From Bdellovibrionales bacterium (GTDB lineage: Bacteria; Bdellovibrionota; Bdellovibrionia; Bdellovibrionales; UBA840): a DNA stretch of 37,574 nucleotides. The stretch is taken from the NCBI GenBank assembly GCA_037969075.1, contig JBBKWS010000058.1, positions 1 to 37,574 on the forward strand, in the 5' to 3' direction. Numbering within the stretch: the first letter of the stretch is position 1; each line of letters begins with the position of its first letter. Below the pieces are notes generated by a model. The model saw only the letters and a program-made list of their open reading frames with translations, had not been told where the DNA came from and made no database searches. Positions 1,261-33,733 of this stretch are shown here, piece after piece. Both the position numbers and the translations under genes were made by a program.

Positions 1261-1273
1261 CAGGAGTTAATAC

Positions 1274-1708
1274 ATGAGAGCAAGACAACTACTTCGTAAC
1301 CAAGCCGGTATGACATTAATCGAAATCGTTATCGTTTTAGCCATTATCGTCGGTATGGTTTCACTATTTTCTGGGACGATTTTCGATACGTTTGGTAAGT
1401 CTCGAGTGAGCACTGTTAAAATTCAATTCTCTGAAATCAGTAAAGCTTTAGATCGCTACAACTTAGATTGTAACTCATACCCAACCACAGAAGAGGGATT
1501 GATCTCTTTAGTAGAGTCTAGCGCAAGATGCAAAAACTGGGGCCCTAAGCCTTATATGAAAAAGCAACTTCTTAATGATCCATGGGGCAATGAAATCATC
1601 TACGAAAGAACATCTAGTTCTGATTTTATATTGATCTCTTTGGGTGCCGATGGCAATGAAGGCGGAGAAGGTTTGGATGCCGACATCCGCTCTGATGCGC
1701 AAGAGTAA
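1274..1708 (+). CDS. gspG: Major pseudopilin GspG
   Basis: Prepilin site QAG|MTLIEI, YPTTEEGL, DPWGNE and the C-terminal SLGADGNEGGEGLDADI motif; SD AGGAG upstream. Confidence 0.93.
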   Translation: MRARQLLRNQAGMTLIEIVIVLAIIVGMVSLFSGTIFDTFGKSRVSTVKIQFSEISKALDRYNLDCNSYPTTEEGLISLVESSARCKNWGPKPYMKKQLLNDPWGNEIIYERTSSSDFILISLGADGNEGGEGLDADIRSDAQE

Positions 1709-2315
1709 GATTCACTTAATCAGTTCAAGCAACAAAGGTTTTACCCTACTAGAAGTGATGGTGGTTTTAGCCATCATCATTGGTATTGTTGGTTTAGCCA
1801 TCACTAATTTACAGCCTCCTAGTCGAAGTGTTCGAGCAGACATTCGAAATATCCTAGTCATCGCAAAGCGTTTGAACCAACAAGCACAGCTTGATGGTAA
1901 AATGTATAGAATCGTTTTTGATCTAAATGATGAGCAAGGCGTCTACTGGGTTGAGTCTGCCAATCGCAAAACAGCAGGCTCTGCAAAACCAAGCGCTACC
2001 CCATTTGGTGGTGGCTCTAACACAGACGAAAAAGACCCAAGAGATTTCGCGCTGGATGCGAGCATCTTAAAAAATAAAGTCAAATTACCTAAAGGGTTTC
2101 GCTTTCTAAAAATTATCTTGGTAGATCAAGATTTAGCTTTTGAACAAGGCAATGGTTTTGTGCACTTTTTTCCTCAAGGCCTTGCTGACTCTGCTATCAT
2201 TCAGATAGCCAATGAAGATGAGAGTTTTAGCTGGACTCTGGTGACAAATCCGCTAAGCGGGAATATCCAGCTGATTGACGGACTGTTTTCAGAAAAAGAT
2301 CTTATCCGTAAGTAG
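1695..2315 (+). CDS. gspH: Minor pseudopilin GspH (start probably ATG 1695, not 1644)
   Basis: NKG|FTLLEVMVVL prepilin site, typical FFPQG motif, position after gspG; ATG 1695 gives a short basic leader. Confidence 0.82.
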   Translation: MRKSKIHLISSSNKGFTLLEVMVVLAIIIGIVGLAITNLQPPSRSVRADIRNILVIAKRLNQQAQLDGKMYRIVFDLNDEQGVYWVESANRKTAGSAKPSATPFGGGSNTDEKDPRDFALDASILKNKVKLPKGFRFLKIILVDQDLAFEQGNGFVHFFPQGLADSAIIQIANEDESFSWTLVTNPLSGNIQLIDGLFSEKDLIRK

Positions 2316-2346
2316 ACATTAACCTTATTTTAAACCAAAATAAACT

Positions 2347-2835
2347 ATGTCCAATAAACGCTCTCAAGGTTTTACTTTAATTGAGGTCATGATAGCTCTG
2401 CTAATTTTGGCAGCCTCACTCACTGTGCTTAACACCTCCTCCTCTTCAAGCATTGCCAGTGTACAAAAAGCTGGAGCCTTAGAGACCATTGCACAGCTCC
2501 TACAACAAAAAGCCAGTGAATACGAACTAACGTATAAAGGTAAGAAATTTGAAGAACTAAAAGAGTCTGAAGCAGGTGACTTTGGCTCGGACTATCCTGA
2601 GTATCGCTGGGCAGTTCAGGTAGAAGATTTTCCAGCGCCTAATTTAGCTGGCATGGCTCAGCAAGAAGAAGGGCAAAATGAAATGCTTTTAACAATTTTA
2701 AATAAATTTTCTGAGCACTTACAAAAAGCAGCAAAAGAAGTAAAGGTCACTGTGTTTTGGAAACCCGGAGAGAAAGAACAAGAGTATTCGGTAACTTTTT
2801 TATTGGTTGATTATGAAACACCTATTGGGATCTAA
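2347..2835 (+). CDS. gspI: Minor pseudopilin GspI
   Basis: SQG|FTLIEVMIAL, YRW and VKVTVFW motifs; lies between gspH and gspJ. Confidence 0.82.
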   Translation: MSNKRSQGFTLIEVMIALLILAASLTVLNTSSSSSIASVQKAGALETIAQLLQQKASEYELTYKGKKFEELKESEAGDFGSDYPEYRWAVQVEDFPAPNLAGMAQQEEGQNEMLLTILNKFSEHLQKAAKEVKVTVFWKPGEKEQEYSVTFLLVDYETPIGI

Positions 2836-3709
2836 ATCTGGCTTTACTATCCTAGAGGTAGTCATCGCTATTACCATAATGGCAAGCCTTGCCTATCTAT
2901 CAGCAATTAGTATAAGCAATGCCATTACAGCAAAAACGCAGCTGCAAAATAGGATTGATGTATCTTCTGAAGTAAGAACCGCACTAAAAGTGATTGAAAA
3001 AGATGTCAAATCTGCATTTCATTACAATAATTTTAACTATGATCTTTTGATCCAGATCAAAAAAGATCAGGTCAAAGCAACAAATCCTAATCAAAATGAT
3101 GAAAACGCTCCCCCGCCTGCACCTGACCAGCCTGTTAAGCCAAATCAACCCAATGATGGGCCAACTAAAAAAACTGTTGTTAATTTAATTGATGACTACT
3201 TGTCAAAATATAAAAAAGCAACGGACCAATCGCAATTTTTAGGTGGAAAAGAAGTTTTAAACTTCACAAGTCTTAACCACGTAAGAAGATTTCAAGACGC
3301 GCAAGAAAGTGATCAAATGGAAGTCGGCTACTATTTGGCAGAGTGCAGAGAACTATTAAATGCAGAGAAGCGTAGCCAATGCCTTTGGCGCAGAGAAAGT
3401 CCCTTTATAGACAAAAATATTGAAGAAGGAGGAGGCACCTCAGTCTTAATGGAAAATGTAAAATCATTAACATTTCAATACAAGACTAAAAAAGAGATGG
3501 AAGATCCAGACACAGACTGGAGAGACTCATGGAGATCAGATGAATCAGGGGATGCTATTACAAGAGGAAAGTTTCCTGATGTTATAAAGGTTAGTATTGA
3601 AGCAGAAATAAAGGGACGAACTATTAAAAATATTATTGTTGTACCTATCGATTTTGTAAACAACAAGGAGACAAAGACAAATGCCCCCGCACAAAATCCA
3701 GTCCGATAA
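2813..3709 (+). CDS. gspJ: Minor pseudopilin GspJ
   Basis: KSG|FTILEVVIA, EVGYYL, LWRRE, W-x-x-x-W and P-x-x-I-x-V-x-I C-terminal pattern; ATG at 2813 (the track start 2807 is TTG). Confidence 0.85.
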   Translation: MKHLLGSKSGFTILEVVIAITIMASLAYLSAISISNAITAKTQLQNRIDVSSEVRTALKVIEKDVKSAFHYNNFNYDLLIQIKKDQVKATNPNQNDENAPPPAPDQPVKPNQPNDGPTKKTVVNLIDDYLSKYKKATDQSQFLGGKEVLNFTSLNHVRRFQDAQESDQMEVGYYLAECRELLNAEKRSQCLWRRESPFIDKNIEEGGGTSVLMENVKSLTFQYKTKKEMEDPDTDWRDSWRSDESGDAITRGKFPDVIKVSIEAEIKGRTIKNIIVVPIDFVNNKETKTNAPAQNPVR

Positions 3710-4937
3710 CCAAGGAGTGGCACTTCTCACAGCCCTATTTGCTGTGATCATTATCTCTTATTTGTCCGTAGAAATTAGCTATGAAGCTGGTATAGAATAC
3801 CGTCTTGCCAAAAATAAAATCGATGAAATAAAAGCTAGCTATGCTGCAAAATCAGGAGCTGAGCTAAGCCTTCTTAGAATTGCCATTTATAAGCAAGTCT
3901 CAGCGCAGTTTGGAGAGCAAATTCCAGATCCCAAACTTTTAGATATGATTTGGAACTTTCCTTTCGCCTGGCCTCCAGCTGTTGGTGAGGATGCTAGCAT
4001 GGGTACAAAAGAAGAAATCAATACCATCCGAGAAGACACTATGCAGGATGCCATGTGGTCGACAGACATTCGAAGTGAAAGTACAAAGTTTGACATTAAT
4101 GACTTAAACTCGCCAGTAGAAAGCTTGCAAAAAGCCATCCGAGAAAAGCTCATAACGCTTTTACAAAACAAGCTAGACAAAGAAGATGCCTGGGCCGAAA
4201 GAAATCGTGATATTAGAGTGGATGAGATTGTAAACAATATTATTGATTGGGTGGATTCGGATACAGAATCTTTAAATGGCGGCGATGAAGGAAGAAATTA
4301 TCAAAATGTTGTCCCAGAAGGCTCTGATGCCACACTTCCGCCAAATAGAGATTTCAAAACACTTGAAGAGCTTCATATGGTAGATGGAATTACTGATGAT
4401 ATCTACGATGTCATCGCACCTGTAGTTACCATTTACGGAGCAAAAGGAGTCAATGTTAATTATGCCGAATCTGATTTAATACGCGCCATTGATCCGCAAA
4501 TCACTGAAGAGATAGCAGGAGAAATTATCAGCAGAAGAAAAAATCCTGACACTGGCCCATTTAAAGACCTTGAAGATTTTGAGGGATTTATTAAAGGCCT
4601 TGGTGTGAATACATCTACATACAACGAAAATAAACTCCCGCTACGATTTAAAAAAGAGTTCAACTTTCGAATCAGTAGCATTGGCTCGTTTGGCAATCAA
4701 ACCAAAGAGATCATCGCCATTGTTTATGATGTCACCAATGCAAAAGCTGAAATCACAAAATTATTAGAAGAACAATTAAAACAGGGAGCAGAACCAGAGG
4801 ATGGCGGTGATGATGACGATTCGTCAAAACCTCCAAATAATACGACTCCTGCGAACAATCAGCCAAAAGATGATAAGGATAAAAAAGACAGCTTTGATAA
4901 AGGTCGCCCTACCATTCTATATTGGAAGGAATCCTAG
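3681..4937 (+). CDS. gspK: Minor pseudopilin GspK
   Basis: QG|VALLTAL site lacking E5 (typical of GspK), K-x-DIN-x-L, IIDWVDSD, EELHMVDGI and VNVNYA motifs. Confidence 0.92.
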   Translation: MPPHKIQSDNQGVALLTALFAVIIISYLSVEISYEAGIEYRLAKNKIDEIKASYAAKSGAELSLLRIAIYKQVSAQFGEQIPDPKLLDMIWNFPFAWPPAVGEDASMGTKEEINTIREDTMQDAMWSTDIRSESTKFDINDLNSPVESLQKAIREKLITLLQNKLDKEDAWAERNRDIRVDEIVNNIIDWVDSDTESLNGGDEGRNYQNVVPEGSDATLPPNRDFKTLEELHMVDGITDDIYDVIAPVVTIYGAKGVNVNYAESDLIRAIDPQITEEIAGEIISRRKNPDTGPFKDLEDFEGFIKGLGVNTSTYNENKLPLRFKKEFNFRISSIGSFGNQTKEIIAIVYDVTNAKAEITKLLEEQLKQGAEPEDGGDDDDSSKPPNNTTPANNQPKDDKDKKDSFDKGRPTILYWKES

Positions 4938-4959
4938 ACTATCGTCGAAAGACATTTTC

Positions 4960-4988
4960 TTGTCCATATGTGCTCATCCAGATATACT
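4960..4988 (+). promoter_or_regulatory. Putative internal sigma70 promoter for gspL-M-N
   Basis: TTGTCC(4960-4965)-N17-TATACT(4983-4988) in the 72-bp gspK-gspL gap. Confidence 0.45.
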
Positions 4989-5009
4989 TAAAGCAACCAG
5001 GGAAGGTGT

Positions 5010-6653
5010 ATGCGCAGCATAGGAATTGACATCGGCACCTATAGTATAAAATACGCTGAAATTGAATACAGCAATAAGAGCTATAGTTTAAAATCATTTC
5101 ATGAATTCATTTTACCGCAGGACCCAACTGTTGACCCTCATGTACATATCGTAGATGCATTAAAAAAAATAGCCGATAAGTATGATACAGATTTAGATCG
5201 CTTCGTATTAGGAATTAGACAAGAGTATGTCTGCAACAGGGTGCTTAATTTTCCTTTTAAACAAAAATTTAAAATTGAAAAATCAATCGGCTTTGAATTA
5301 GAAGACGACCTTCCTTTTGATATCGAAGATGCCATTATCTCTCCAAAAATCGTACAAACATCAGGTGAAGCTTCTTCAGTCATGGCGTTTGCTGCTCTCA
5401 AAGCAAATATTGCTGCGATCATTAAGATCTGTAACGATGTAGGCATAGACCCTGACATCGTAAGTTGTGAAGGTGCGGCTCTTAGTAATTTTTTTGAAAT
5501 TTGGTCCGAAGCACCAAAAGATCAAATCATCGACTTAGCCAACATCGAACAGACCGAATGCATAGTTACCATTTACTTGGGACATTCTAAAAGCTTGATG
5601 GCCGTACACCATAAACATCAGCTGATAGCCTTAAGAAGCATTCACTTCGGTGGCTTAGAGATAGCCCAAGCCATATCAAAGAAATATAACATATCAATCA
5701 TTGAGTCTTTAAAAACACTACAAGAAAAAGCTTTTATCCTTACTTCACAAAAAAATGTTAGCCAAGACCAGATCACTTTCTCTAATCTTATTGCCTCAAG
5801 CGTTGATACAATGGCAACCGAAGTTAAAAGGCATTTGATCTCAATTGAGGCCGAAAAGAATATCCGTGTTACACAAATATTTATTACTGGTGGAACATCA
5901 AAAATAATGAACCTATGTCAGCATTTAACACAATGTTTTATATTGCCAGTCAACCTGATGGAGTTTGATGAGAGGTTAAAGGCTTCACCAATACAAGTGC
6001 CAAAAGAAAAGTTTCATAACGCTCTTATATCCGTAGGACTTGCCATCGAAGGCCTTCGACCAAACAAAAACCCTCCTATTCAATTTAGAAAACTAGAGTT
6101 AGCAAAACAAAGTCAAACTTTGCATATATTTGTAGAAAAATGGGGAAGTACTTTAAAAACCATGGCTGCCCTACTTGTAATACTATTTATATATACCCTT
6201 ACAAAGAGCATTGTTACAGATCAGATGCAGGCATTTTCTAATCAAAAATTAAAGGCGCAAGCGTCTAAAATTGGTTTAAAAGGCAGAGAGGCCACCACAA
6301 ATGCAATCCAACGCTATATTAGAAATCAAAGAAATGACTTAAAAGCTAAAGAAATGATTTCGGATCTACAAAAGATCAACTCTCCCCTTGATATCATGTT
6401 GACCCTTAGTAAAACGGTGCCTGCAGCCAACTCTATTACTTTAGATGTTAGAAAATTTTCTATCAAAGAAAATATTTTAAAGCTAGAGGGTCATGTTGAT
6501 AACCAACAGCAAATCAATGTTTTGAAATCAGCTCTCAGCTCTATTAATCTCAATAAGACTTTACAGACGCCGCCTTTCTCCATAGCTAGAGAATCAAGCA
6601 AGCAACCATTTTCGTACGAATTAAAAGTAAAACGTAATGTAGGAGATCTGTAA
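5010..6653 (+). CDS. gspL: GspL, PilM-like actin-fold cytoplasmic domain fused to TM and PilN-like periplasmic domain
   Basis: IGIDIGTYSIK, HFGG and ITGGTS actin-fold motifs, one TM near aa 385-400, LKLEG ferredoxin-like C-terminus; position between gspK and gspM. Confidence 0.8.
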   Translation: MRSIGIDIGTYSIKYAEIEYSNKSYSLKSFHEFILPQDPTVDPHVHIVDALKKIADKYDTDLDRFVLGIRQEYVCNRVLNFPFKQKFKIEKSIGFELEDDLPFDIEDAIISPKIVQTSGEASSVMAFAALKANIAAIIKICNDVGIDPDIVSCEGAALSNFFEIWSEAPKDQIIDLANIEQTECIVTIYLGHSKSLMAVHHKHQLIALRSIHFGGLEIAQAISKKYNISIIESLKTLQEKAFILTSQKNVSQDQITFSNLIASSVDTMATEVKRHLISIEAEKNIRVTQIFITGGTSKIMNLCQHLTQCFILPVNLMEFDERLKASPIQVPKEKFHNALISVGLAIEGLRPNKNPPIQFRKLELAKQSQTLHIFVEKWGSTLKTMAALLVILFIYTLTKSIVTDQMQAFSNQKLKAQASKIGLKGREATTNAIQRYIRNQRNDLKAKEMISDLQKINSPLDIMLTLSKTVPAANSITLDVRKFSIKENILKLEGHVDNQQQINVLKSALSSINLNKTLQTPPFSIARESSKQPFSYELKVKRNVGDL

Positions 6654-7288
6654 TGCGTTTTGACGATATCAAAGAACAAATCATAGAGTCAGCAAAGTTT
6701 TATACTGAAAAAGTTAAAGAATCCTCTGTATTTATCCAAGCGCAAGAAAAATATGAAGAATTAAATCCCAATGTGCAGAAGTTAATTCGCTACGGTGCTG
6801 TGTTTTTATTGGTTTATTTTATATTTAGTTTTCCTCTCTCTTGGAACAATCAGGCAAAAGACAATTTAGCCAAATATCAAAAGAACCGCGGGCTTATCGA
6901 GGACCTCTTAAATATACAGACTGAGATTAAAAATGCTCCTGATGTAAAAACCAAAATCGATGCCAATGTCTTACAAACGCAAACGAGTGAGATGATCGAA
7001 AAAGTTGGGTTAGCTAAAGAGCAAGTTACTTCCTCAAGCATTGTTACTAGTGCGCAAAGAGAGTTTACCTTTATTCCTAAAGATATAAACTATGTTGGCG
7101 TGCAAATTGTTTTAAGTAAACTTAATCTTACCCAGATTCTTGATATCGGAACGAAACTACAAAATCTCAATACTGATGCTAAACTTATCGAGTTAAGCAT
7201 GAACGCAAATAAGGATGATAATCACTACTACGATGTTACCTACTTACTAGCCAGCTTCACGGGCGCCGAGGCAGGAAGCAATGAATAA
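6653..7288 (+). CDS. gspM: GspM-like inner-membrane protein
   Basis: YEELNPNVQKL (resembles W-x-x-L-x-x-RE) + TM + coiled coil + ferredoxin-like domain; start overlaps the gspL stop (TAATG). Confidence 0.7.
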   Translation: MRFDDIKEQIIESAKFYTEKVKESSVFIQAQEKYEELNPNVQKLIRYGAVFLLVYFIFSFPLSWNNQAKDNLAKYQKNRGLIEDLLNIQTEIKNAPDVKTKIDANVLQTQTSEMIEKVGLAKEQVTSSSIVTSAQREFTFIPKDINYVGVQIVLSKLNLTQILDIGTKLQNLNTDAKLIELSMNANKDDNHYYDVTYLLASFTGAEAGSNE

Positions 7289-8231
7289 GGTTATCTTAAA
7301 AAAATCTCTGTCCATCTTTTTAAAAATTGTTTTACCATGTTTTATTGTATTTAGCTTTATCTTGTTTCCGATCAATGATCTAAGAGGTATAATCAGTCAA
7401 AAAATTTCTCAAGCGACACAAAATCAAGTTTCCTTGGACTTTTCTGAAATGAATTTAAATTTTTTACCAAAACCATCTTTAGAATTAGAAAAAGTAAGTT
7501 TATCTACGCCGCAATTTTCGACATTAAAAATGTCTAGCCTACAAATTTCACCTTCTATTTTAGGTCTAATTACTTTAAAACCTGGAGTCACTCTTTTCGG
7601 TGAAAACTTATTTGGTGGGAACTTTGATTTTAGCTTGCGTTCAGGAGCTAACAATAGCAAGTCACAAACAAAACAAATCATTCAACTCTCGGCACAAAAT
7701 TTAGCTATCGATGAGTTATTACAGTTCTTAAGCTTAGGGTTTAAGGGCAGCGGAAATTTACAAATCAATCTTGATTCTACCCTAGATCCAGCAGGGCAAG
7801 AAACCGAAGCTAGCATTAAAATAGATTCTAGAGATATCAATTTGCCCGAGAACAATGTTCCCACGCAGTATGGCGCGGTCACTTTGCCTCCAGCCAAAAT
7901 TAGTGTCTTACAACTTGAGGGTGAATTAAAAAAGAACAAGCTTCGAATCACCAAAGGCAGTATCGGAAAAGACGGCGATACCCTTACCGGGAGCATTGAA
8001 GGAACTATTGATGTCCGTGTAATGGCAGGCCCTCAAGGACCGCAAGTTGTCCCAACTGGTTACGATTTAATTGTCCGCTTACGTCTACAAAATACATTTT
8101 TGGATGCGTTTACACTTAAGCCTGTTATTGAGAACTTTAGATCTTCTCAATCTGGTAAAGATTCGGTTTTCAATCTATCTCTTAGTGCCACTAGTATGCG
8201 CTCGCCTCCAACCATTACTAAGATACAATAA
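7281..8231 (+). CDS. gspN: Type II secretion protein GspN
   Basis: N-terminal TM ending LFP, then a beta-rich AsmA-like body; last gene of the gsp operon. Confidence 0.75.
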   Translation: MNKVILKKSLSIFLKIVLPCFIVFSFILFPINDLRGIISQKISQATQNQVSLDFSEMNLNFLPKPSLELEKVSLSTPQFSTLKMSSLQISPSILGLITLKPGVTLFGENLFGGNFDFSLRSGANNSKSQTKQIIQLSAQNLAIDELLQFLSLGFKGSGNLQINLDSTLDPAGQETEASIKIDSRDINLPENNVPTQYGAVTLPPAKISVLQLEGELKKNKLRITKGSIGKDGDTLTGSIEGTIDVRVMAGPQGPQVVPTGYDLIVRLRLQNTFLDAFTLKPVIENFRSSQSGKDSVFNLSLSATSMRSPPTITKIQ

Positions 8232-9723: not shown

Positions 9724-11736
9724 ATGAACCAATTATTCAGGCGATGTATGTTCGGCCTGTGCGTCCTGTGGACTGGTGCTGCCTTAGCACAAGTCCCGGT
9801 AGCCGGCGAGAAAACAGCATCACCCATTGTTGTCGATGAGACACAATTGTTAGTAAAGTATGGTGAGTACGACGAAGTCGAACTTAACCTAGATGCAAAC
9901 ACAAGTAATAAGCCAGTAAAATGGTCGATTACTGCTGGATCACTTCCAGAAGGTTTAACACTAGAAGACTCTAGTTCAAAAACAGCATACCTGTACGGTA
10001 CACCTATGTTTACCGATCAGTGGTGCTTTTTAGTTTCAGCACAAGTTGAAAATAATATTTATAATCGTGAGCTTTGCGTATCTAGCGAAGACAATGACGA
10101 AATGGACTACCCTCGTTTTAAAACGAAAAGTCTATTAAAATATGCGATCAAAAAACAACTATATGAAGCTAAAATTGAAACCGATTCAGTCGTGCCATTA
10201 GTATATACTGAATTGATTAGCTCAACCATCCCTAATACTGCGGATGTTAAAGTTGAAATCTCTAATGATTATGAAACTGTAAAGATCAGAGGTCGTTTTC
10301 AAACAGCAGGCCTGCATTTACTTGCACTTCGCTTAGTCGACAAAGATGGCTATGAGAACTTTCAACAATTTAGAGTAAATATATTTGACGAAGAACCTCA
10401 AAACCAATGTCCTCCAGGCTATTATTATGACGATATACTTGGATATTGTGTTCAAGATCAATTAGATAATTGCCCATCAGATACATATTATGATCCAGAA
10501 CGAAATGTATGTGTGCAGTACCCACAAGCACCTCCAACAGTTTATTGTGGAACAGATTCTTACTACGATCATTTTTTATCTCGTTGCGTTCGTGTCGGAT
10601 ACCCACGTTGTCCACTAAACTCTTACTTTGATAGCTACTACAATCAGTGCGTACGCTACTCGTATTCATGTCCTGCAGGATTCAATTACGACTGGTCATC
10701 ACGTCGTTGTGAATATGTATACAGAAGAACTTGTCCATCTGGTTATAACTACGATTATGCAAGAGATACTTGTGTTCGTGAGTACAGACATTGTTCATCT
10801 GGACAATCTTGGAATCCACGCACGAATCGTTGCGAATGGAACTCAAACTACAGAAGCTGTGGAAGAGATGAATACTACAGTCCACAAACCAGAAGATGTG
10901 AGCCAAGTCGTGTAAGATGCCGTCCACATGAGTATGACAATGGCAATAGATGTCTACCACGCCAAGACGATAGAATTAGACGCTGTGGTCATGGTGAAAC
11001 ACACTCTCCTTCTTTAGGAAGATGTATTCCACATAGACAACCGCCACGTGTTGATCCGCCTCGTAGACCTCTACCTCCTCGTGTTAACCCACCAGATCGT
11101 AGACCTCCACCGATTGGTAGACCCCCTCGTGCAGAACCTCCACGTCAAAGACCACCGAGAGTGAAACCGCCACGTCAGGAGCCACCTCCGACTCGTCCAC
11201 CGCGTGTTGATCCACCGCCACGTCAAGATCCGCCTACTCGTCCGCCACGTGTTGATCCACCTCCGCGTCAAGATCCACCAACTCGTCCGCCACGTGTTGA
11301 TCCACCTCCGCGTCAAGATCCACCAACTCGTCCGCCGAGAGTTGATCCACCACCACGTCAAGATCCGCCAACAAGACCGCCGCGTGTTGATCCTCCACCG
11401 CGTCAAGATCCGCCTACTCGACCGCCGCGTGTTGATCCTCCACCTCGTCAAGATCCGCCTACTCGACCGCCGCGTGTTGATCCACCGCCACGTCAAGATC
11501 CGCCGACTCGTCCGCCACGTGTTGATCCACCACCGCGTCAAGATCCGCCGAGCCGTCCACCAAGACCGACTCCACCTCCAAGAGCGGAAGAGCCGGTTAG
11601 AAACGATCCACCTCCTAGGTTTGATCCACCTAGCAGAAGTGAACCGCCTTCTAGATCTGAGCCGCCAAGCAGAAGTGAGCCAGACAATAATGCTCGCGAC
11701 AGAGCCGGAAGATGTGTAGATCGTCGCAACTGTTAA
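9724..11736 (+). CDS. Secreted protein with Ig-like domain(s), ten Cys-pair repeats and a Pro/Arg tandem-repeat tail
   Basis: Signal peptide ending ALA|Q; WSITAGSLPEGLTL...YGTP (He_PIG/putative Ig-like); C-P-x-G-x-x-Y-D-x5-C-like units; 15-aa repeats; SD AAGGGGG. Confidence 0.85.
   Translation: MNQLFRRCMFGLCVLWTGAALAQVPVAGEKTASPIVVDETQLLVKYGEYDEVELNLDANTSNKPVKWSITAGSLPEGLTLEDSSSKTAYLYGTPMFTDQWCFLVSAQVENNIYNRELCVSSEDNDEMDYPRFKTKSLLKYAIKKQLYEAKIETDSVVPLVYTELISSTIPNTADVKVEISNDYETVKIRGRFQTAGLHLLALRLVDKDGYENFQQFRVNIFDEEPQNQCPPGYYYDDILGYCVQDQLDNCPSDTYYDPERNVCVQYPQAPPTVYCGTDSYYDHFLSRCVRVGYPRCPLNSYFDSYYNQCVRYSYSCPAGFNYDWSSRRCEYVYRRTCPSGYNYDYARDTCVREYRHCSSGQSWNPRTNRCEWNSNYRSCGRDEYYSPQTRRCEPSRVRCRPHEYDNGNRCLPRQDDRIRRCGHGETHSPSLGRCIPHRQPPRVDPPRRPLPPRVNPPDRRPPPIGRPPRAEPPRQRPPRVKPPRQEPPPTRPPRVDPPPRQDPPTRPPRVDPPPRQDPPTRPPRVDPPPRQDPPTRPPRVDPPPRQDPPTRPPRVDPPPRQDPPTRPPRVDPPPRQDPPTRPPRVDPPPRQDPPTRPPRVDPPPRQDPPSRPPRPTPPPRAEEPVRNDPPPRFDPPSRSEPPSRSEPPSRSEPDNNARDRAGRCVDRRNC
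10408..11025 (+). repeat. About ten degenerate Cys-pair repeats (roughly 19-24 aa) in ORF 9724
   Basis: CPPGYYYDDILGYC, CPSDTYYDPERNVC, CGTDSYYDHFLSRC, CPLNSYFDSYYNQC, CPAGFNYDWSSRRC, CPSGYNYDYARDTC, CSSGQSWNPRTNRC, CGRDEYYSPQTRRC, CRPHEYDNGNRC, CGHGETHSPSLGRC. Confidence 0.9.
11197..11556 (+). repeat. 8 x 45-bp coding tandem repeat (PPRVDPPPRQDPP[T/S]R)
   Basis: GTTGATCC recurs at 11206, 11251, 11296, 11341, 11386, 11431, 11476 and 11521 (45-nt period); followed by 3x PPSRSE. Confidence 0.95.
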
Positions 11737-26694: not shown

Positions 26695-26828
26695 TCTTCC
26701 TCCAAGTGAAGCCTTTGCATTTCACAAAAATTACACCAAAAGAGCAAGTGAATTGCCCGCTAACGCAAAGAGCAAAGACTTTCTTTCCATTCATAAAAAA
26801 CGTTAACTATAGGTATAGGAGAAACAAC

Positions 26829-27668
26829 TTGAATTTCTTTCGCTTTGATCTCAAAAAATTATTTATTTTTGCGCTGCTTATTTTACTACCTGTATTCTCG
26901 CTTAGCTTATTAAAGCCAGGTGATAGGCTATGGATTTTTAGACCCTTAGGAAACGTCACCGGTTTTGTACAAAGCCTGTTTGTAAGTTTCTCTGAAACTA
27001 TCCAAGACACCACAGGTAAATACTTATACCTAATTGACGTCAATAAAGAGATAGCCTCTTTAAAAAATGAAAATGCAAAACTAAAAGCCGAAGTGATGCG
27101 CTTTACTGAAATCGAAAAAGAAAATACTCGCTTAAATAATATTCTACAATTTACTCAAGGCGCTGACATGACATTAATTTCTGCCCAGGTCATAGGGATA
27201 GACATTTTTGCCGAGCGTTCCAGTATAAGAATCAACCGAGGCACTAAAGATGGAGTTCAAAAAGGACAGGCTGTTATTACAAAAGAAGCAGCTGTTGGTT
27301 ATATACTAGAAGCTAATGATACAACATCTCTTATCTTGGTACTGACAGATCGTTACGCAGTTATTGATGCTATCATTCAAAATTCTCGCGCTAGAGGTAT
27401 TGTCGAGGGTAGCGGGTCTGACTCATGTCTGTTAAAATATCTACAGCGTTCAGACGAAGTACAGATAGGCGATATCGTTGTTACCAGTGGTTTAGATAAT
27501 ATCTTTCCAAAAGGTTTGCCCATTGCTCGTGTAAAAAATGTCTCTCGGCGTAAATCAGAGATTAGTCCAACCATCGAGCTAATGCCAATAGTAGATGTGA
27601 GTCGGCTTGACGAGGTTTTTGTTGTTCACACGGTTGTTAACCCAACTGCTGAGGCCAATTTACAATGA
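26829..27668 (+). CDS. mreC: Rod shape-determining protein MreC (start probably TTG 26829)
   Basis: ENTRL coiled coil, INRGTKDGV, VVTSGLDNIFPKGLPI; SD AGGAGA before TTG 26829. Confidence 0.93.
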   Translation: MNFFRFDLKKLFIFALLILLPVFSLSLLKPGDRLWIFRPLGNVTGFVQSLFVSFSETIQDTTGKYLYLIDVNKEIASLKNENAKLKAEVMRFTEIEKENTRLNNILQFTQGADMTLISAQVIGIDIFAERSSIRINRGTKDGVQKGQAVITKEAAVGYILEANDTTSLILVLTDRYAVIDAIIQNSRARGIVEGSGSDSCLLKYLQRSDEVQIGDIVVTSGLDNIFPKGLPIARVKNVSRRKSEISPTIELMPIVDVSRLDEVFVVHTVVNPTAEANLQ

Positions 27669-28201
27669 CAGAAAACCGGTCTCTCTATTTAAATATACTA
27701 TTGCACTTTTTATTTTTGTGGGTTTTGACAGCCATTCAAAGCGGGTTGTGGTATAAACTATTGGGTGGTTTTCCGCCGCCATTTTTTTGGGTACTTTTTT
27801 TATCCTATATTTCAATCTACAGAAAAGCGAAAGATCTAATTCTTTTAGGCATCGTAGGATTTTTTCTTTTGATGCATTTTACAATTGCACCATATGCGCT
27901 GGTATTCCTGATTTCATTTATTCTTATTCTGCTTTTACAAAAAGCTAAGCATCGAGTTTTTTGGCCTGGCCCCACCTACTACTTAGCAGCCAGCTCTGTC
28001 GCAAGTTTAGCTTTTATAATATTGTATTACTTTATCTCCTGGAGTTTTGAAGAAGCAGGTTTTGCTAAAGTTCGCTGGTTGTTCTTATTTTTACAATGGC
28101 TTTTGACCACTCTGATTTCACCATTTCTATATTTTCTATATCAATATATAGATAAGTGGACAGGTAAAGAGCAGATCATACCAATGGAAGACATGCTATG
28201 A
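27665..28201 (+). CDS. mreD: MreD-like membrane protein
   Basis: Five TM segments; ATGA overlaps with mreC and mrdA. Confidence 0.7.
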   Translation: MTENRSLYLNILLHFLFLWVLTAIQSGLWYKLLGGFPPPFFWVLFLSYISIYRKAKDLILLGIVGFFLLMHFTIAPYALVFLISFILILLLQKAKHRVFWPGPTYYLAASSVASLAFIILYYFISWSFEEAGFAKVRWLFLFLQWLLTTLISPFLYFLYQYIDKWTGKEQIIPMEDML

Positions 28202-30180
28202 ATTGGCGCGTAAGCACTCCTCAAGATGAAGTTAAAGAGTATAGCGACAGATATAAATTTATATATATCCTACTTGCCGTCTCATTAGGAATTTTTTTAA
28301 TGCGTCTTTGGTATTTACAAATTTTCAGAGGCACGGAGTTTCGCTATTATTCTGAACAGAACTTAATTAAATTTCAAAAAATGATGGCGCCTCGTGGACG
28401 CATACTTGATCGCAATGGCGTAGTCTTAGTAGACAACTATCCAGGTTTTGAGGCCACTATTACCCCGCAATACGTACAAGACTTAGAAGGAACCGCTCTT
28501 GCTGTATCTAAAATTTTAAATATTCCAGATAAACATATAGTCCGTCTTGTACAAAAAGGCGCAAAAGAAGAGGGTCGCTATCGGTCTGTGCGCATTAAAG
28601 AAAATCTGACACGTGATGAGGTGGCAAGAGTTGAACGAATTCGCCTAGATTACCCTGGCCTTGACGTAAATATGTTTATCAAGCGCTCTTATCCTTACCA
28701 TGAGATCGGCGCGCAGCTTTTAGGTTATGTGGCCGAGATTTCTAGGTCACAACTACCTGTATTAAACAGAAAGCTTCCAGACGATAAAAAATTCAAGCAA
28801 GGTGATATACTTGGAAAATCAGGAATTGAGCAAACATACGACGACGGTTTAAGAGGAATTGACGGGCTAAGTTTCGTACAAGTAGATGCAAGAGGAAGAA
28901 TTGCAAATATAAAAGATAGTGGGCTACTAACTGCCCTACCTTCAAAACAAGAACCAACTCCAGGAAATAACTTAAAACTAACAATAGATGCTGACTTACA
29001 AAATGCTGCATACAAAGCATTTCAAGACAAAGAGTTCATTGGTGGACTGGTCGCTATTGACCCTAATAATGGAGAAATCTTATCTTGGATTAGCGCACCT
29101 TCTTATGACCCAAATACATTTTCAACGGGCATCTCGCAAAAATTATGGGCTGAACTGACTAACGATCCATTTAAGCCATTAAGAAATAAAGTGATTCAAG
29201 ATCACTACGCCCCAGGCTCTACATTTAAAACATTTGTAGCTTTAGCGGCCTTACAAGAAAAGATTATTACTTCTAACACCACTGAGTATTGCCCCGGTTA
29301 CATTCAGTTCGGTAGAAAACGATACCATTGCTGGTCAAGATCAGGTCACGGGAATGTTAATATTTATCAAGCGCTCGAGCAATCTTGTAACGTATTTTTT
29401 TATAAGCTTGGGATAAAACTAGGAATAGACAACATAGCAAAATACGCCTCTGCACTTGGTATTGGTAAAAAAACTGACGTTGAAGTTAAAAACGAAGTCT
29501 CTGGCCTGATGCCTACTACTAAATGGAAAGAAGATCAGTTCGGAGAGCCGTGGCAACCAGGAGAGAACTTAAGTAATGCTATTGGACAAGGGTTTGTCCT
29601 TACAACTCCACTACAGTTAGCCTTAGCGTATGGCAGCATAGGTGCCGAGGGTCCTTACTACAAGCCTCACATTATACGAGAAGTTTTAGATCCTGATGAA
29701 AAAGTTATCAGAGAAGTAAAACCTGAGCTCGTAATGGACTCATCTCAGCCAGGTCCTGACGGAAAACCTTTGATTTCAAAAAGTACATTTAAAATCATCA
29801 AAGACTCTTTATTTAAAGTTACTAACGGTGAAAGAGGAACTGCTAAGTGGTATAAAATCCCTGGAATAGAGTACGCCGGTAAAACTGGGACCGTACAAAA
29901 CTTTGGCCTATCTGCAGATCAAATTTATACTAAGTGTGAAACCAGACCTCTTAGACAAAGACATCATGGTTGGTTTGTTGCCTATGCTCCGGCCGACAAT
30001 CCTAAGATTGCCATTGCGGTTCTTGCTGAACATGCCTGTCATGGCTCAAGCGCAGCTCCAGTGGTAAGAGATGTGATGCTGGCTTATTTTAAAAAATACC
30101 ACCCTGAACTACTCGAAACGAAAGAGCTACATAAAATTGTTGCTCCTAAGGCTACGCCTCAACCCAACATTGAGGAATAG
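28198..30180 (+). CDS. mrdA: Penicillin-binding protein 2
   Basis: APRGRILDRNG, GKSGIE, catalytic motifs STFK, SCN and KTGT. Confidence 0.96.
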   Translation: MNWRVSTPQDEVKEYSDRYKFIYILLAVSLGIFLMRLWYLQIFRGTEFRYYSEQNLIKFQKMMAPRGRILDRNGVVLVDNYPGFEATITPQYVQDLEGTALAVSKILNIPDKHIVRLVQKGAKEEGRYRSVRIKENLTRDEVARVERIRLDYPGLDVNMFIKRSYPYHEIGAQLLGYVAEISRSQLPVLNRKLPDDKKFKQGDILGKSGIEQTYDDGLRGIDGLSFVQVDARGRIANIKDSGLLTALPSKQEPTPGNNLKLTIDADLQNAAYKAFQDKEFIGGLVAIDPNNGEILSWISAPSYDPNTFSTGISQKLWAELTNDPFKPLRNKVIQDHYAPGSTFKTFVALAALQEKIITSNTTEYCPGYIQFGRKRYHCWSRSGHGNVNIYQALEQSCNVFFYKLGIKLGIDNIAKYASALGIGKKTDVEVKNEVSGLMPTTKWKEDQFGEPWQPGENLSNAIGQGFVLTTPLQLALAYGSIGAEGPYYKPHIIREVLDPDEKVIREVKPELVMDSSQPGPDGKPLISKSTFKIIKDSLFKVTNGERGTAKWYKIPGIEYAGKTGTVQNFGLSADQIYTKCETRPLRQRHHGWFVAYAPADNPKIAIAVLAEHACHGSSAAPVVRDVMLAYFKKYHPELLETKELHKIVAPKATPQPNIEE

Positions 30181-30188
30181 GAATACAT

Positions 30189-31292
30189 ATGCAAATAGAA
30201 TCCAGAACCATCTTTAAGCGCTTCGACATTAACTTTGCACTAATTATTTTAGCACTTAATATTATAGGCCTTATCAATGTTTATAGTGCGACCCATGATC
30301 ACGGAGAGTTTAGTCGTACCTTCGCGATGCAAGTGGTGTGGATCATATTAGGTTGGATATTTTTTTTAGCCCTGAGTTTTATGGATTATAAGTTTTTAAG
30401 TAAACTCGCAATTCCTTTCTGGCTCTTTAATATTGTTATGCTAATCCTCGTAACCTTTAAGGGAAAAACCGTTTACGGAGCAAAGCGTTGGCTAGATTTA
30501 GGCTTCTTTGCCTATCAACCCTCTGAGACTATGAAACTAGCAATGGTTTTAATTTTAGCTACCATCTTGCAAAAAAAGAATTCTATTCAAGGTTTAGGGT
30601 TTAGAGATTTAATTGTCCCCATGTTTTTTACCGCTATACCATTTTTCATCATCGTTAAACAACCAGATCTTGGAACAGGGTTAATGTTGGCAGCCATATC
30701 TGTCAGCATGGTCTTATTTGCAAAAATTCGCAAAGGCCCCCTTATCACAGCCATTGTTGCTGTTATGATAGCCCTGCCGGCGGTGTGGTCCTTTGGCTTA
30801 AAGCCCTATCAAAAGGATCGTGTATTTACTTTCTTAGATCCAGGCAGAGATCCTAGAGGAGCAGGCTATAACAGTATTCAGTCAAAAATTGCAGTGGGAA
30901 GCGGGGAAACTTTTGGCAAAGGTTTTTTAAAAGGAACACAGGCTCAGTTTGATTTTTTACCTGAACGACATACAGATTTTATCTACAGTGTATTGAGTGA
31001 AGAACATGGTTTTATAGGAAGCGTATTCACACTACTCTTATTTATGGTCTTATTCATTATGTGCATCCGAATCGCCACTAATGCTAGGGATAAGTTTGGA
31101 GCCCTACTAGTTATAGGTTTTTCTAGTTATATATTTTGGCATATGTTTGTAAATATAGGAATGGTTTGCGGACTGTTACCAATTGTGGGTGTACCACTTC
31201 CGCTCATTTCTTATGGTGGAACTGGTATGCTCTCTATTATGATTGGCCTTGGAGCTATATCCTCGGTGTCATACAGACGCTATTTATTTTAA
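30189..31292 (+). CDS. rodA: SEDS glycosyltransferase RodA
   Basis: GAKRWL, QPSE, QPDLGT, GYNSIQSKIAVGSG, LPERHTDFI, PLISYGGT. Confidence 0.96.
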   Translation: MQIESRTIFKRFDINFALIILALNIIGLINVYSATHDHGEFSRTFAMQVVWIILGWIFFLALSFMDYKFLSKLAIPFWLFNIVMLILVTFKGKTVYGAKRWLDLGFFAYQPSETMKLAMVLILATILQKKNSIQGLGFRDLIVPMFFTAIPFFIIVKQPDLGTGLMLAAISVSMVLFAKIRKGPLITAIVAVMIALPAVWSFGLKPYQKDRVFTFLDPGRDPRGAGYNSIQSKIAVGSGETFGKGFLKGTQAQFDFLPERHTDFIYSVLSEEHGFIGSVFTLLLFMVLFIMCIRIATNARDKFGALLVIGFSSYIFWHMFVNIGMVCGLLPIVGVPLPLISYGGTGMLSIMIGLGAISSVSYRRYLF

Positions 31293-31828
31293 TGTAACAA
31301 CGATCTCTTTTTACTGAAAAGTGTGATTACAACAATTCCTACGGCCACAAGATACCATGTGGCTAAATAACTTGGTGACATAAATACCTCAGCATTAGCT
31401 GCATCAGGCTTTCTCATCACTATAAATACTAATAGATACACTAATGGCGGAAGTGCAATGCTAACAAGTGGCTTAGTACGCAAAACCCTCATTTCAGCAC
31501 GACTTAATACAAACACACTTATTAAAGAGGACGCTCCGATAAAAATACTTGCACAAAGGGCCGCACATGCCCAATCTCCATAAGCCATTACAGAGTGTAT
31601 AAAATGATGTCCACTCATCTTTGTAAGGCTCACACCAAATTGCGGGCATACAAAAAGAGTCGCAACACCAGCTACCAGTTGGCTCAAAATAAACTTTTGA
31701 AATGTAGTAGAAAATGCTGGCTCTAAGTCTTTTTTAATTTGCTGCAGCACTTTTGATGTAAGAGATAAAGGAGCTCTAATGCTAGAGTTCATAAAATCTG
31801 TAAATTGTGCAAACCACTTACGCTTCAT
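31289..31828 (-). CDS. Putative membrane anti-sigma factor (Cys/His-rich)
   Basis: Overlaps the ECF stop; N-terminal soluble helix, about four TM segments, CPQFG, HHFIH, CAALC. Confidence 0.6.
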   Translation of the reverse strand: MKRKWFAQFTDFMNSSIRAPLSLTSKVLQQIKKDLEPAFSTTFQKFILSQLVAGVATLFVCPQFGVSLTKMSGHHFIHSVMAYGDWACAALCASIFIGASSLISVFVLSRAEMRVLRTKPLVSIALPPLVYLLVFIVMRKPDAANAEVFMSPSYLATWYLVAVGIVVITLFSKKRSLLH

Positions 31829-32348
31829 TTTTTTCTCCTAGGACCAATTTTCTTAATTTAATTACTCCCCTGCTTACAATCTTCCTTACATTAGATTCTT
31901 TTATATTTAATTTTTTAGCTATTTCTTCAAAGTCCAAGTCTTCAATGTATCTAAGTTCAATCATCTGCTTATAATTTTCTGGTAAACTTTCAATCATCGC
32001 TTTGATATCCCACTTTTCATCATCAACCTTTACTTCTTCTGACAATGTATCCACTACGATCTCTATTTTATCCATGGGGATGTCTTTTTTTAGCCGGTAC
32101 CAGTCTATCAACACATTTCTAGAAATCGTAAACAACCATGGGGCAAACAGTAAACTAGGGTCATATTTCTCCCTGTTTTCATGCAATTTTAAAAATATCT
32201 TTTGGTACAAATCCTCGACTACATCGTTTGTATTAAGCCGCTTCTTTAAATACGCGTAAACCCTTGAAGTATACCTACTATATAGCTCTTCAAAAGCCTG
32301 CAAATTACCATTTTGATACAGTACCATCAATTTTTCATCAGTTTGCAA
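31818..32348 (-). CDS. ECF RNA polymerase sigma factor (TTG start)
   Basis: Region 2 (AFEELY, EDLYQKIF, PWLFTISRNVLID) and region 4 (LPENY...EEIA...SNVRKIVSRG); 176 aa with no extension. Confidence 0.93.
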   Translation of the reverse strand: MQTDEKLMVLYQNGNLQAFEELYSRYTSRVYAYLKKRLNTNDVVEDLYQKIFLKLHENREKYDPSLLFAPWLFTISRNVLIDWYRLKKDIPMDKIEIVVDTLSEEVKVDDEKWDIKAMIESLPENYKQMIELRYIEDLDFEEIAKKLNIKESNVRKIVSRGVIKLRKLVLGEKNEA

Positions 32349-32371
32349 ACGTACGTCCTGTTACAAGTTAC

Positions 32372-32424
32372 TACGGAACAGCCTTTTAAATTGTGACATG
32401 TCACAAAATAAATTTTAGCCCGTA
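32372..32424. promoter_or_regulatory. Two divergent ECF-type promoters sharing palindrome TTGTGACATGTCACAA (32391-32406)
   Basis: Minus: TGTCACA(32398-32392)-N16-CGTA(32375-32372). Plus: TGTCACA(32399-32405)-N15-CGTA(32421-32424). Confidence 0.7.
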
Positions 32425-32452
32425 TAAAGGGTAGAAACAACACGGGAATGAT

Positions 32453-33079
32453 ATGACTAAAAAAATATTGCTACTTTTATTACTACTGACCCCCCATTTA
32501 GGCTATGCCCACCCGGTAAGTTATGAGGGCTCATTTATGCTGGGCAGTCAAAATTCTAACGATATGGGAAGGCAACTTATTATATACTCTCAAAAGTATT
32601 GGTTGGGGTACGGGGCTAGCTTTAATCGTTTTGAAGACGACCAGGTATATGCGTCCCAACTTAGTCTATTGGCTAAACGTTGGAACTTACCCGCAGCTCA
32701 AGCCAATATCTATGTATTTGGTGGCTATGGGATGTTAGAGCAAGAAGACAAACGAACCAGTGGGATTGCACATTATGGAACGCAAATAGACTATGAAACC
32801 AGAGAAATATTTACTGCTTTTAAATACCATAGGTTTGATAATTATGATGAATTCAACAGAGATAACTATGCGGTACAAGCAGGCTTTGCCCCATTTTTAG
32901 CAGATTACAACGACCTAAATGTATGGCTTATCGGTGAGCTAGCTTACCACCCAGATACTCTACGAAATGGAGTGGGCGCAGTACTATTACGATTCTTTTA
33001 CAAAAATGTATATTGGGAAATGGGCTCCTCTTTTGAGGGAGGACCAATATTTAACTTTATGTTGCACTATAACCCTTAG
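32453..33079 (+). CDS. Putative outer-membrane beta-barrel protein with mature N-terminal His
   Basis: Signal peptide GYA|HPVSY, aromatic amphipathic strands, C-terminal FNFMLHY. Confidence 0.65.
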   Translation: MTKKILLLLLLLTPHLGYAHPVSYEGSFMLGSQNSNDMGRQLIIYSQKYWLGYGASFNRFEDDQVYASQLSLLAKRWNLPAAQANIYVFGGYGMLEQEDKRTSGIAHYGTQIDYETREIFTAFKYHRFDNYDEFNRDNYAVQAGFAPFLADYNDLNVWLIGELAYHPDTLRNGVGAVLLRFFYKNVYWEMGSSFEGGPIFNFMLHYNP

Positions 33080-33088
33080 GGAGGAAAA

Positions 33089-33358
33089 ATGAATTCATTT
33101 ATTTTATTACTAATAAGTCAGCTCACTTTCGCAGGACAAATTCATGTCGGTGTAAATGGGATGGTCTGTGCGTTTTGCGCAAACGGAATAGAGAAAACGT
33201 TTAAAAAAGAAGCTTCCGTTGAAAAGGTAGATGTGGACTTAGAAAAAAAGATAGTTAGCATTACAACCAAAAAAGATAAAGATATCTCAGATGATCATTT
33301 AAAAGAATTAATCACAAAAGCGGGCTATACTATTACAACGATTCATCGAGAAAAATAA
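33089..33358 (+). CDS. Periplasmic heavy-metal-associated (HMA; MerP/CopZ-like) protein
   Basis: Signal peptide followed by GMVCAFC (GM-x-C-x-x-C) and AGY; SD GGAGG. Confidence 0.9.
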   Translation: MNSFILLLISQLTFAGQIHVGVNGMVCAFCANGIEKTFKKEASVEKVDVDLEKKIVSITTKKDKDISDDHLKELITKAGYTITTIHREK

Positions 33359-33370
33359 AGGACGAACAAT

Positions 33371-33733
33371 ATGAAAAAAGCGCTACACTTTTTTAATTTG
33401 TTTTCTAGCACAGCAACACTTATTTGCTGTGCTATTCCGGCCCTTCTTGTTGTACTGGGATTAGGTGCGACGCTGGCGAGCTTCCTAACTTATTTTCCTC
33501 AACTTATCTGGCTTTCAGAACATAAGGTCTTGGTTTTTGCGATATCAGGAACATTACTCTTAGCTTCACATGTTGTGCAGTTTTACACTAAACCCTTAGA
33601 CTGCCCTATAGATGAAAAAGGCGTAGCATGCAAAGAGACCAGAGGTAGTTCAAAAATCATACTCTGGCTTGCCACCCTAATTTGGATGATAGGCTTTGGT
33701 TTTGCTTATATCTTACCTTTATTGGATTTGTAG
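33371..33733 (+). CDS. MerT-like small inner-membrane metal transporter
   Basis: Vicinal Cys in TM1 (LICCAIP), second Cys pair in a loop (DCPIDEKGVAC), three TM segments. Confidence 0.75.
   Translation: MKKALHFFNLFSSTATLICCAIPALLVVLGLGATLASFLTYFPQLIWLSEHKVLVFAISGTLLLASHVVQFYTKPLDCPIDEKGVACKETRGSSKIILWLATLIWMIGFGFAYILPLLDL

Follow-up and report, generated by a model that had tools for sequence, protein, structure and literature searches.

The window analysed here comprises 37,574 nucleotides from a Bdellovibrionales bacterium (assembly GCA_037969075.1, contig JBBKWS010000058.1, positions 1 to 37,574), and this study concerns a module of five genes at 31289..33733. An original prediction, made from the letters alone, had read these genes as a self-contained metal relay from the outer membrane through the periplasm to the inner membrane, controlled by a sigma factor of the extracytoplasmic function (ECF) type and an anti-sigma factor. 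All five open reading frames (ORFs) were found in the predicted layout and orientations, flanked by rodA on one side and a subtilase gene on the other. The genes, and the two promoter motifs between the divergent operons, are listed below.

31289..31828, minus strand: anti-sigma-like membrane protein, 179 aa, overlapping the ECF stop; no Pfam or NCBIfam match
31818..32348, minus strand: ECF sigma factor, TTG start; PF04542, PF08281 and TIGR02937 above cut-off
32372..32397, minus strand: ECF-type motif GTCACA-N16-CGTA toward the ECF/anti-sigma-like operon, read from the sequence and conserved in related loci
32400..32424, plus strand: ECF-type motif GTCACA-N15-CGTA toward the barrel-HMA-MerT-like operon, read from the sequence
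32453..33079, plus strand: predicted outer-membrane beta-barrel, 208 aa, from an AlphaFold2 (AF2) model
33089..33358, plus strand: HMA protein (predicted periplasmic, MerP/CopZ fold) with GMVCAFC; PF00403
33371..33733, plus strand: MerT-like membrane protein, a distant MerT homologue with four Cys aligned to the MerT Cys

The barrel, HMA and MerT-like genes are referred to below as the trio. Judged by their sequences, the barrel and the anti-sigma-like protein belong to no described family.

Proteins of the module

The AF2 model of the barrel showed 12 strands (predicted local distance difference test, pLDDT, 92.5); a signal peptide and a short N-terminal segment are also predicted. The best fold matches were 12-strand barrels at 7-11% identity, with PcoB among them and not at the top; comparison with the PcoB structure 7PGE gave a Z of 11.8 and a root-mean-square deviation of 3.9 over 162 residues, as against Z 12 to 15.6 for unrelated 12-strand barrels. 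Pfam and NCBIfam profile searches identified no family for the protein, and by profile it is not CopB/PcoB (PF05275), with no Pfam match and an hhalign value to CopB of 0.7%. No Cys is present in the barrel here, and almost none was found across 196 homologues, in which M203 (84%), H205 (61%), H20 (64%) and M29 or M31 (124/196) were kept. Strand alternation by itself suggests that M203, H205 and M29/M31 may face the lumen.

The HMA protein matched PF00403 with 39.1 bits (cut-off 24.8) and was the sole PF00403 match of the assembly. Its C27/C30 pair was conserved in 81/81 cases, and a hydrophobic N-terminal stretch was present in 64/78 homologues. Like MerP, it combines a signal peptide, read from hydropathy, with a single HMA domain bearing CxxC; hhalign gave 97.8% to MerP, and the score against the MerP family TIGR02052 was 31.7 bits, under the cut-off of 92.55. 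The MerT-like protein was predicted to have three transmembrane (TM) helices and carries the two Cys pairs by which MerT is recognised, namely C19-C20 in TM1 and C78/C87 in a K/R-rich loop that is predicted to be cytoplasmic. All four Cys were kept in 67/67 members and aligned with those of a MerT encoded in a merR-T-P-A operon (hhalign probability 74%, E 2.7e-5). The MerT- and MerP-like Cys layout seen in the original prediction was borne out. Against PF02411 the protein scored 18.2 bits, under the 32.9 cut-off; 9/67 members matched the MerT family profile (PF02411/NF010314) at E<0.1, the best at 5.5e-4, and a sequence search identified no relative of solved structure. One MerT-like relative was found on a Vibrio plasmid in a copper cluster, and another on a Variovorax plasmid outside any such cluster. 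A GDCCVxC domain protein adjoins a MerT-like/HMA gene on a Vibrio plasmid (L148:5754-5948) and the trio in Lysobacter (L179:2923-3135).

The composition of mer operons is covered in PMC3466566, and MerT imports Hg via the four Cys that match here (PMC5715351); merT/merP find no mention in PMC8478169. The earlier reading that the locus has neither MerR nor MerA was extended to the whole assembly, which is 90% complete: no MerA and no Hg-type MerR (TIGR02051) scored over cut-off. A MerA-like gene (TIGR02053, 405 bits against a cut-off of 454) was rejected as a VTT-disulfide reductase fusion without the C-terminal Cys pair. Among carrier genomes, merA scored over cut-off in 2/50 (50 of the 77 distinct genomes at hand); a 'MerA' match near the trio at L078 was discounted, as its genome contains nothing that matches MerA at E<=1e-125. 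Given these 2/50 carriers and the lack of a hit over cut-off here, the trio is not a mer operon.

The ECF sigma factor matched TIGR02937 with 105.5 bits (cut-off 42.9) and contains sigma2 and sigma4 domains, zero Cys and no Cys-rich C-terminal extension. A CorE-like ECF238 assignment was rejected because the protein has no Cys and is followed by a conserved membrane gene. Published reverse-transcription primers for bd0743 and bd0881, two other Bdellovibrio ECFs (PMC3464611), matched 0/116 loci, a weak negative as to identity with either. In the searched part of the ECF-group supplement of PMC7826278 (Casas-Pastor 2021), GTCACA is given for no groups other than ECF41, ECF103 and ECF288. None of the three has this anti-sigma, Bdellovibrio is not mentioned there, and the rest may hold a matching group.

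The anti-sigma-like protein has a ~45-residue cytoplasmic N-terminus and four TM helices, as predicted from hydropathy and K/R bias, and its AF2 model was helical (pLDDT 86.8). Three Cys were invariant in 41/41 members, C61 at the end of TM1 and C88/C92 at the start of TM2, and the periplasmic face is the predicted location of all three. The 41 members have no common Pfam family, and Foldseek with the model returned no match at E<=0.001. This gene had been described as a Cys/His membrane gene, with SigF/NrsF of Caulobacter named as a known metal-responsive pair. The Cys part of that description stood; the His residues were not conserved, and His-rich metal sensing was rejected on that ground. 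Nor is the protein an NrsF: 0/41 members matched PF06532 (DUF1109/NrsF) and four TM helices were predicted rather than six; an Atlas match (score 0.75) to a cluster in which NrsF makes up 20% was weak. Its position and co-occurrence make it likely that the 179-aa protein acts as the anti-sigma factor. It was identified in 169/301 genomes of the phylum (~56% of the sampled Bdellovibrionota), and among the 30 best anti-sigma-like loci, 15 have the barrel and 10 have an OEP gene as the divergent gene.

Conservation, promoter motifs and copper context

Locus counts refer to the best 80 of 237 confirmed barrel loci. The HMA gene followed the barrel in 80/80, an order far from chance, and the MerT-like gene was present in 66/80; four contigs ended too early and 10 loci lacked it, nine of these in Verrucomicrobiota. 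The closest barrel relative showed 76% identity, and no barrel relative was found in the viral contigs or plasmids searched. The barrel occurred in 8/401 Pseudomonadota genomes (one being the centre genome, picked as a carrier), and all 8/8 matches had the full trio in order with the ECF not nearby. Synteny of the trio extends across Bdellovibrionota and other phyla; of the five genes it is the trio that is tightly kept, and it stands under other regulators outside Bdellovibrionota. Beside the module there recurs a protein (L004, L008, L012, L038, L066, L068 and contig C9) that ends in a MauE domain and has, by inspection, a glutaredoxin-like N-terminus.

The 104-bp gap between the ECF and barrel genes contains two back-to-back GTCACA-N15/16-CGTA motifs, and the palindrome TGTGACATGTCACA (32392-32405) is made up of their two -35 boxes. 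The minus-strand copy is predicted to serve ECF autoregulation, and a sigma-70 promoter scan found nothing in this intergenic region. The strict motif pointed toward the barrel in 28/41 ECF-divergent loci, the window included, vs 3/38 others. With a relaxed pattern that allows CCTA and was set after seeing the data, the counts were 40/40 vs 4/40, and in three of the latter four the contig breaks off a short way upstream. Loci of Bdellovibrio sensu stricto have the motif as GTCACA-N16-CCTA, and only the barrel-facing copy was found in their intergenic region (L013, L014, L017, L022, L026-L028, L030, L037, L041 and similar loci). The assembly mixes at least two related species, as seen from long duplicated stretches of 82-91% identity (contigs C58/C103, C108/C173, C126/C135/C202 and C55/C91). 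Contig C103 is a sister copy of the window (C58) with 83% identity, in which the ECF gene, the anti-sigma-like gene and their motif are retained, the trio is absent and the barrel-facing -35 box has decayed. That the trio and its -35 box were lost together in the sister species counts in favour of the scheme proposed below. The trio is also gone at L133.

The motif was then counted genome-wide. In 17 carriers of the anti-sigma-like gene, picked mostly for multiple copies and including kin that are not independent, 60 matches were obtained vs 7 for reversed-pattern controls; 11 non-carriers gave 2 matches vs 8 controls. The downstream genes of 30 of these 62 matches were fetched and comprised ECF (6), anti-sigma (1), barrel (2), OEP (5), oxidase (2), CopZ-like (1), CsoR-type (1), PF14376 (3), DUF3347 (1), no family (5), prepilin peptidase (1) and no ORF (2), both non-carrier matches falling in the last two classes. 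Five further carriers yielded 18 matches vs 5 controls, upstream of ECF (7), barrel (5), multicopper oxidase (2), the OEP of a cus-type operon (2), a CusA/CzcA RND pump (1) and an unknown secreted protein (1). Within the assembly studied here, the motif stands before a DsbD-family gene and before an OEP-CusB-CusA-cupredoxin-ECF-CopA cluster, whose CusA keeps the methionine motifs of copper-type pumps. The proposal of a self-contained relay was not supported: the motif is also found upstream of dsbD and of genes for cus-type efflux and multicopper oxidases, and other regulators serve the trio outside Bdellovibrionota. ECF control of the trio stood as far as the conserved ECF-type motif toward the barrel is concerned, and does not extend to those other regulators.

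Two further proteins were observed around these targets. One is a second, CorE/SigZ-like ECF (L089:6724-7281, contig C22), whose C-terminal tail is Cys-rich; it is encoded within the cus-cupredoxin-copA cluster, where two ECF types may be layered on one copper cluster. The other, a secreted haem-binding protein (PF14376) whose N-terminus is His-rich, recurs after the motif or in copper clusters (L150, L164, L170), and probably also at L111:16040-16552 and L114:9684-10169.

A recognised copper gene was located within 5 kb of the trio in 31/80 loci, the neighbours being cupredoxin (14), multicopper oxidase (10), CsoR (7), CopA (7), CueR-like (5), CusA (2), CusF (2) and CopB (1). The ECF was absent from 34/75 loci with enough upstream DNA. 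In 19 of these 34, a Cys-rich leader ORF ending in a Pro motif was identified within ~90 nt upstream of the barrel (control, 18/1928 positions, 0.9%), and 18/19 leaders had a hydrophobic, signal-like N-terminus. Leaders of the CutF/CopL type are copper-induced (PMC9973294), and the signal-like N-termini and gaps of <100 nt suit this type over the CruR type. CsoR was found near 7/80 trio loci and 3/8 Pseudomonadota loci. Because the ECF regulon, the leaders and CsoR all point to copper excess, we consider it probable, with good confidence, that this is a copper/silver-excess module. The thiophilic metal of the original prediction (Cu, Ag, Hg or similar) is thereby narrowed by genomic context to copper or silver; mercury is unlikely, since across predatory bacteria a matching promoter-like motif is found ahead of copper pumps. 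Acquisition, offered there as an option, also fits poorly, since the regulators and co-regulated genes indicate induction by excess.

Proposed copper pathway and alternative explanations

We propose that periplasmic Cu(I) would bind C61/C88/C92 of the anti-sigma-like protein and thereby free the ECF. Starting at the two GTCACA-CGTA motifs, the ECF would transcribe both its own operon and the trio. The trio would then form a passive Cu(I) hand-off chain running inward from the barrel to the periplasmic HMA protein and the MerT-like protein, as in MerP to MerT. The barrel may admit or collect copper at its Met/His site, the HMA CxxC may bind it within the periplasm, and the MerT-like protein may relay it from its TM1 Cys pair to the cytoplasmic loop pair, for transfer to buffers or a CopA-type ATPase. 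Energised removal would fall to the co-induced CusCBA, oxidase and ATPase, and DsbD would keep the periplasmic thiols reduced. A passive inward direction is favoured because the trio encodes no energiser, the same argument by which inward flux was proposed for PcoB (PMC9210255). The genes, the invariant ligands, the synteny, the motif and the genes downstream of it are observed, whereas the anti-sigma role, copper as the signal and transport are inferred. We hold the complete scheme, inward direction included, tentatively and at a little under an even prospect.

Several observations weigh against this scheme. CxxC HMA motifs fail to discriminate among metals, and some motif targets look Zn/Cd/Co-related (the CusA/CzcA-family RND gene and, by sequence inspection, a likely CDF gene). 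No recognised copper gene was found in the available DNA of 49/80 loci, many of them on short contigs. When this genome was scanned loosely for the motif, 8 matches were obtained, three of which look incidental, where 18.6 were expected from base composition, so that the motif count alone is not enriched here. Contig C22 holds its own Cys-tailed ECF and, the assembly being a two-species mix, the other species may be the source of C22 and C5. The leader matches to NF033807 were all under cut-off, with 8 of the 17 tested at E<0.05, and leaders of the CruR type repress in copper (PMC9973294). The MerT-like gene is absent from 10/80 loci with enough sequence, three of which carry a co-oriented CsoR-CopA exporter instead, suiting outward flow, and the PcoB of Caulobacter (C. 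vibrioides) was reported as an efflux protein (PMC12509749).

Outward flow within the same regulon, in which cytoplasmic Cu(I) would cross via the MerT-like protein (alternatively a CopA ATPase), reach the HMA protein and leave through the barrel, would accommodate this 12-strand efflux barrel, the exporter genes in those three loci and the co-regulation of the trio with efflux genes. It would leave the trio without an energy source and require a high-affinity CxxC carrier to release copper to the medium, and the MerT homologue imports (PMC5715351); we regard it as plausible but unlikely. The other main alternative is periplasmic buffering, in which the HMA protein would sequester Cu(I)/Ag(I), the MerT-like protein would serve mainly as a thiol-electron conduit keeping the CxxC reduced, and little metal would cross the inner membrane. 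MerT may keep MerP reduced. The obligate barrel-HMA core (80/80), the dispensable MerT-like gene (10 losses), the motif at the DsbD gene and the control of periplasmic copper-binding bufferins by SigF (PMC11626156) are all compatible with buffering. Yet the MerT-like protein retains all four transport Cys and the three-TM layout, and buffering alone leaves the obligate barrel unexplained, which makes it quite unlikely.

As to the metal, a broad thiophilic-metal or thiol-stress system responding to Cu, Ag, Cd, Zn and Hg alike is improbable: the RND and likely CDF targets, an all-Cys sensor and the response of SigF to heavy-metal or oxidative stress (PMC7826278) would suit it, whereas the neighbours are dominated by oxidases, cupredoxin, CusF, CopB, CueR, CsoR and CopA. 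Copper acquisition under scarcity, for cuproenzymes, might be read from the import-type architecture, from the many trio loci that stand alone and from the control of importers by CruR-type leaders (PMC9973294). Since the motif is common to efflux and oxidase genes, and the leaders resemble CutF rather than CruR in the features given above, we consider acquisition very improbable. An orphan mercury-uptake (merTP) module is given almost no credence, despite true distant homology to MerT and MerP, in view of the merA counts, the missing MerR and scores under all MerT/MerP cut-offs.

Taken together, the copper-excess reading describes what is a real, conserved copper-stress variant that is apparently undescribed; a literature search, with most subscription journals outside its reach, found no publication that describes the module in its title or the opening of its abstract. 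It is possible, though we say so with clearly limited conviction, that the trio is a new envelope-wide copper pathway (12-strand channel to MerP-like to MerT-like protein), a copper sister lineage from which mer transport may derive, with the three-cysteine anti-sigma/ECF pair as master copper sensor in more than half of the Bdellovibrionota. The route of copper across the outer and inner membranes and the direction of PcoB-type barrels are unsettled, and the compact trio, assembled from unrelated components, gives an independent case in which to examine them. If the copper reading is true, MerT/MerP relatives would have a copper role, two unannotated families (barrel and anti-sigma-like) would gain a function, and a candidate ECF group with promoter and regulon would be defined in ~56% of the sampled Bdellovibrionota genomes. 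Orphan 'merT/merP' annotations without merA should not imply mercury resistance.

In the remainder of the window, sequence inspection identified an ordinary type II secretion-like cluster (40-8228) and mreC-mreD-pbp2-rodA (26706-31292), with the module directly after rodA. The GC peak at 11-12 kb stems from a gene (9724-11736) for a secreted protein that carries eight proline-rich repeats of 15 residues (repeats at 11191-11549, 45-bp period).

Comparison with known systems

With mer operons the module shares a periplasmic CxxC HMA protein and a three-TM protein with TM1 and loop Cys pairs. It differs in its barrel-P-T order, obligate outer-membrane barrel, absence of MerR/MerA, copper neighbours and regulators, and scores under the family cut-offs. 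The Pco/Cop systems are similar in their three-tier layout (PcoB barrel, PcoC chaperone, PcoD permease), copper-resistance context and an equally debated direction, and PcoB is a 12-strand barrel (PMC9210255), as the barrel here is predicted to be. Unlike there, the carrier is an HMA protein and not PcoC, the permease is MerT-like and not PcoD, the regulator is an ECF and not PcoRS, and the barrel has no CopB sequence homology.

On the regulatory side, SigF/NrsF (ECF16) of Caulobacter and Bradyrhizobium likewise pairs an ECF with a following multi-pass, Cys-bearing membrane protein, a CGTA -10 element and a copper/metal stress regulon (PMC7826278, PMC11626156). In the present module, four TM helices stand against six and three Cys against two, there is no DUF1109/NrsF match, the targets are different, and the -35 element is GTCACA, whereas the SigF/NrsF promoter reads GTAACC-CGTA (PMC7826278). 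CorE (ECF238), a copper ECF (PMC10141476), and CnrH/CnrYX (ECF291) are metal-responsive ECFs that also drive oxidase, ATPase or RND efflux genes; here, in contrast, the ECF lacks the Cys-rich C-terminal extension, the anti-sigma-like protein is multi-pass and no CnrX-like gene is present. Judged from its genes, the module would work like PcoB-C-D under a SigF/NrsF-like switch, while being a member of neither system, nor of mer.

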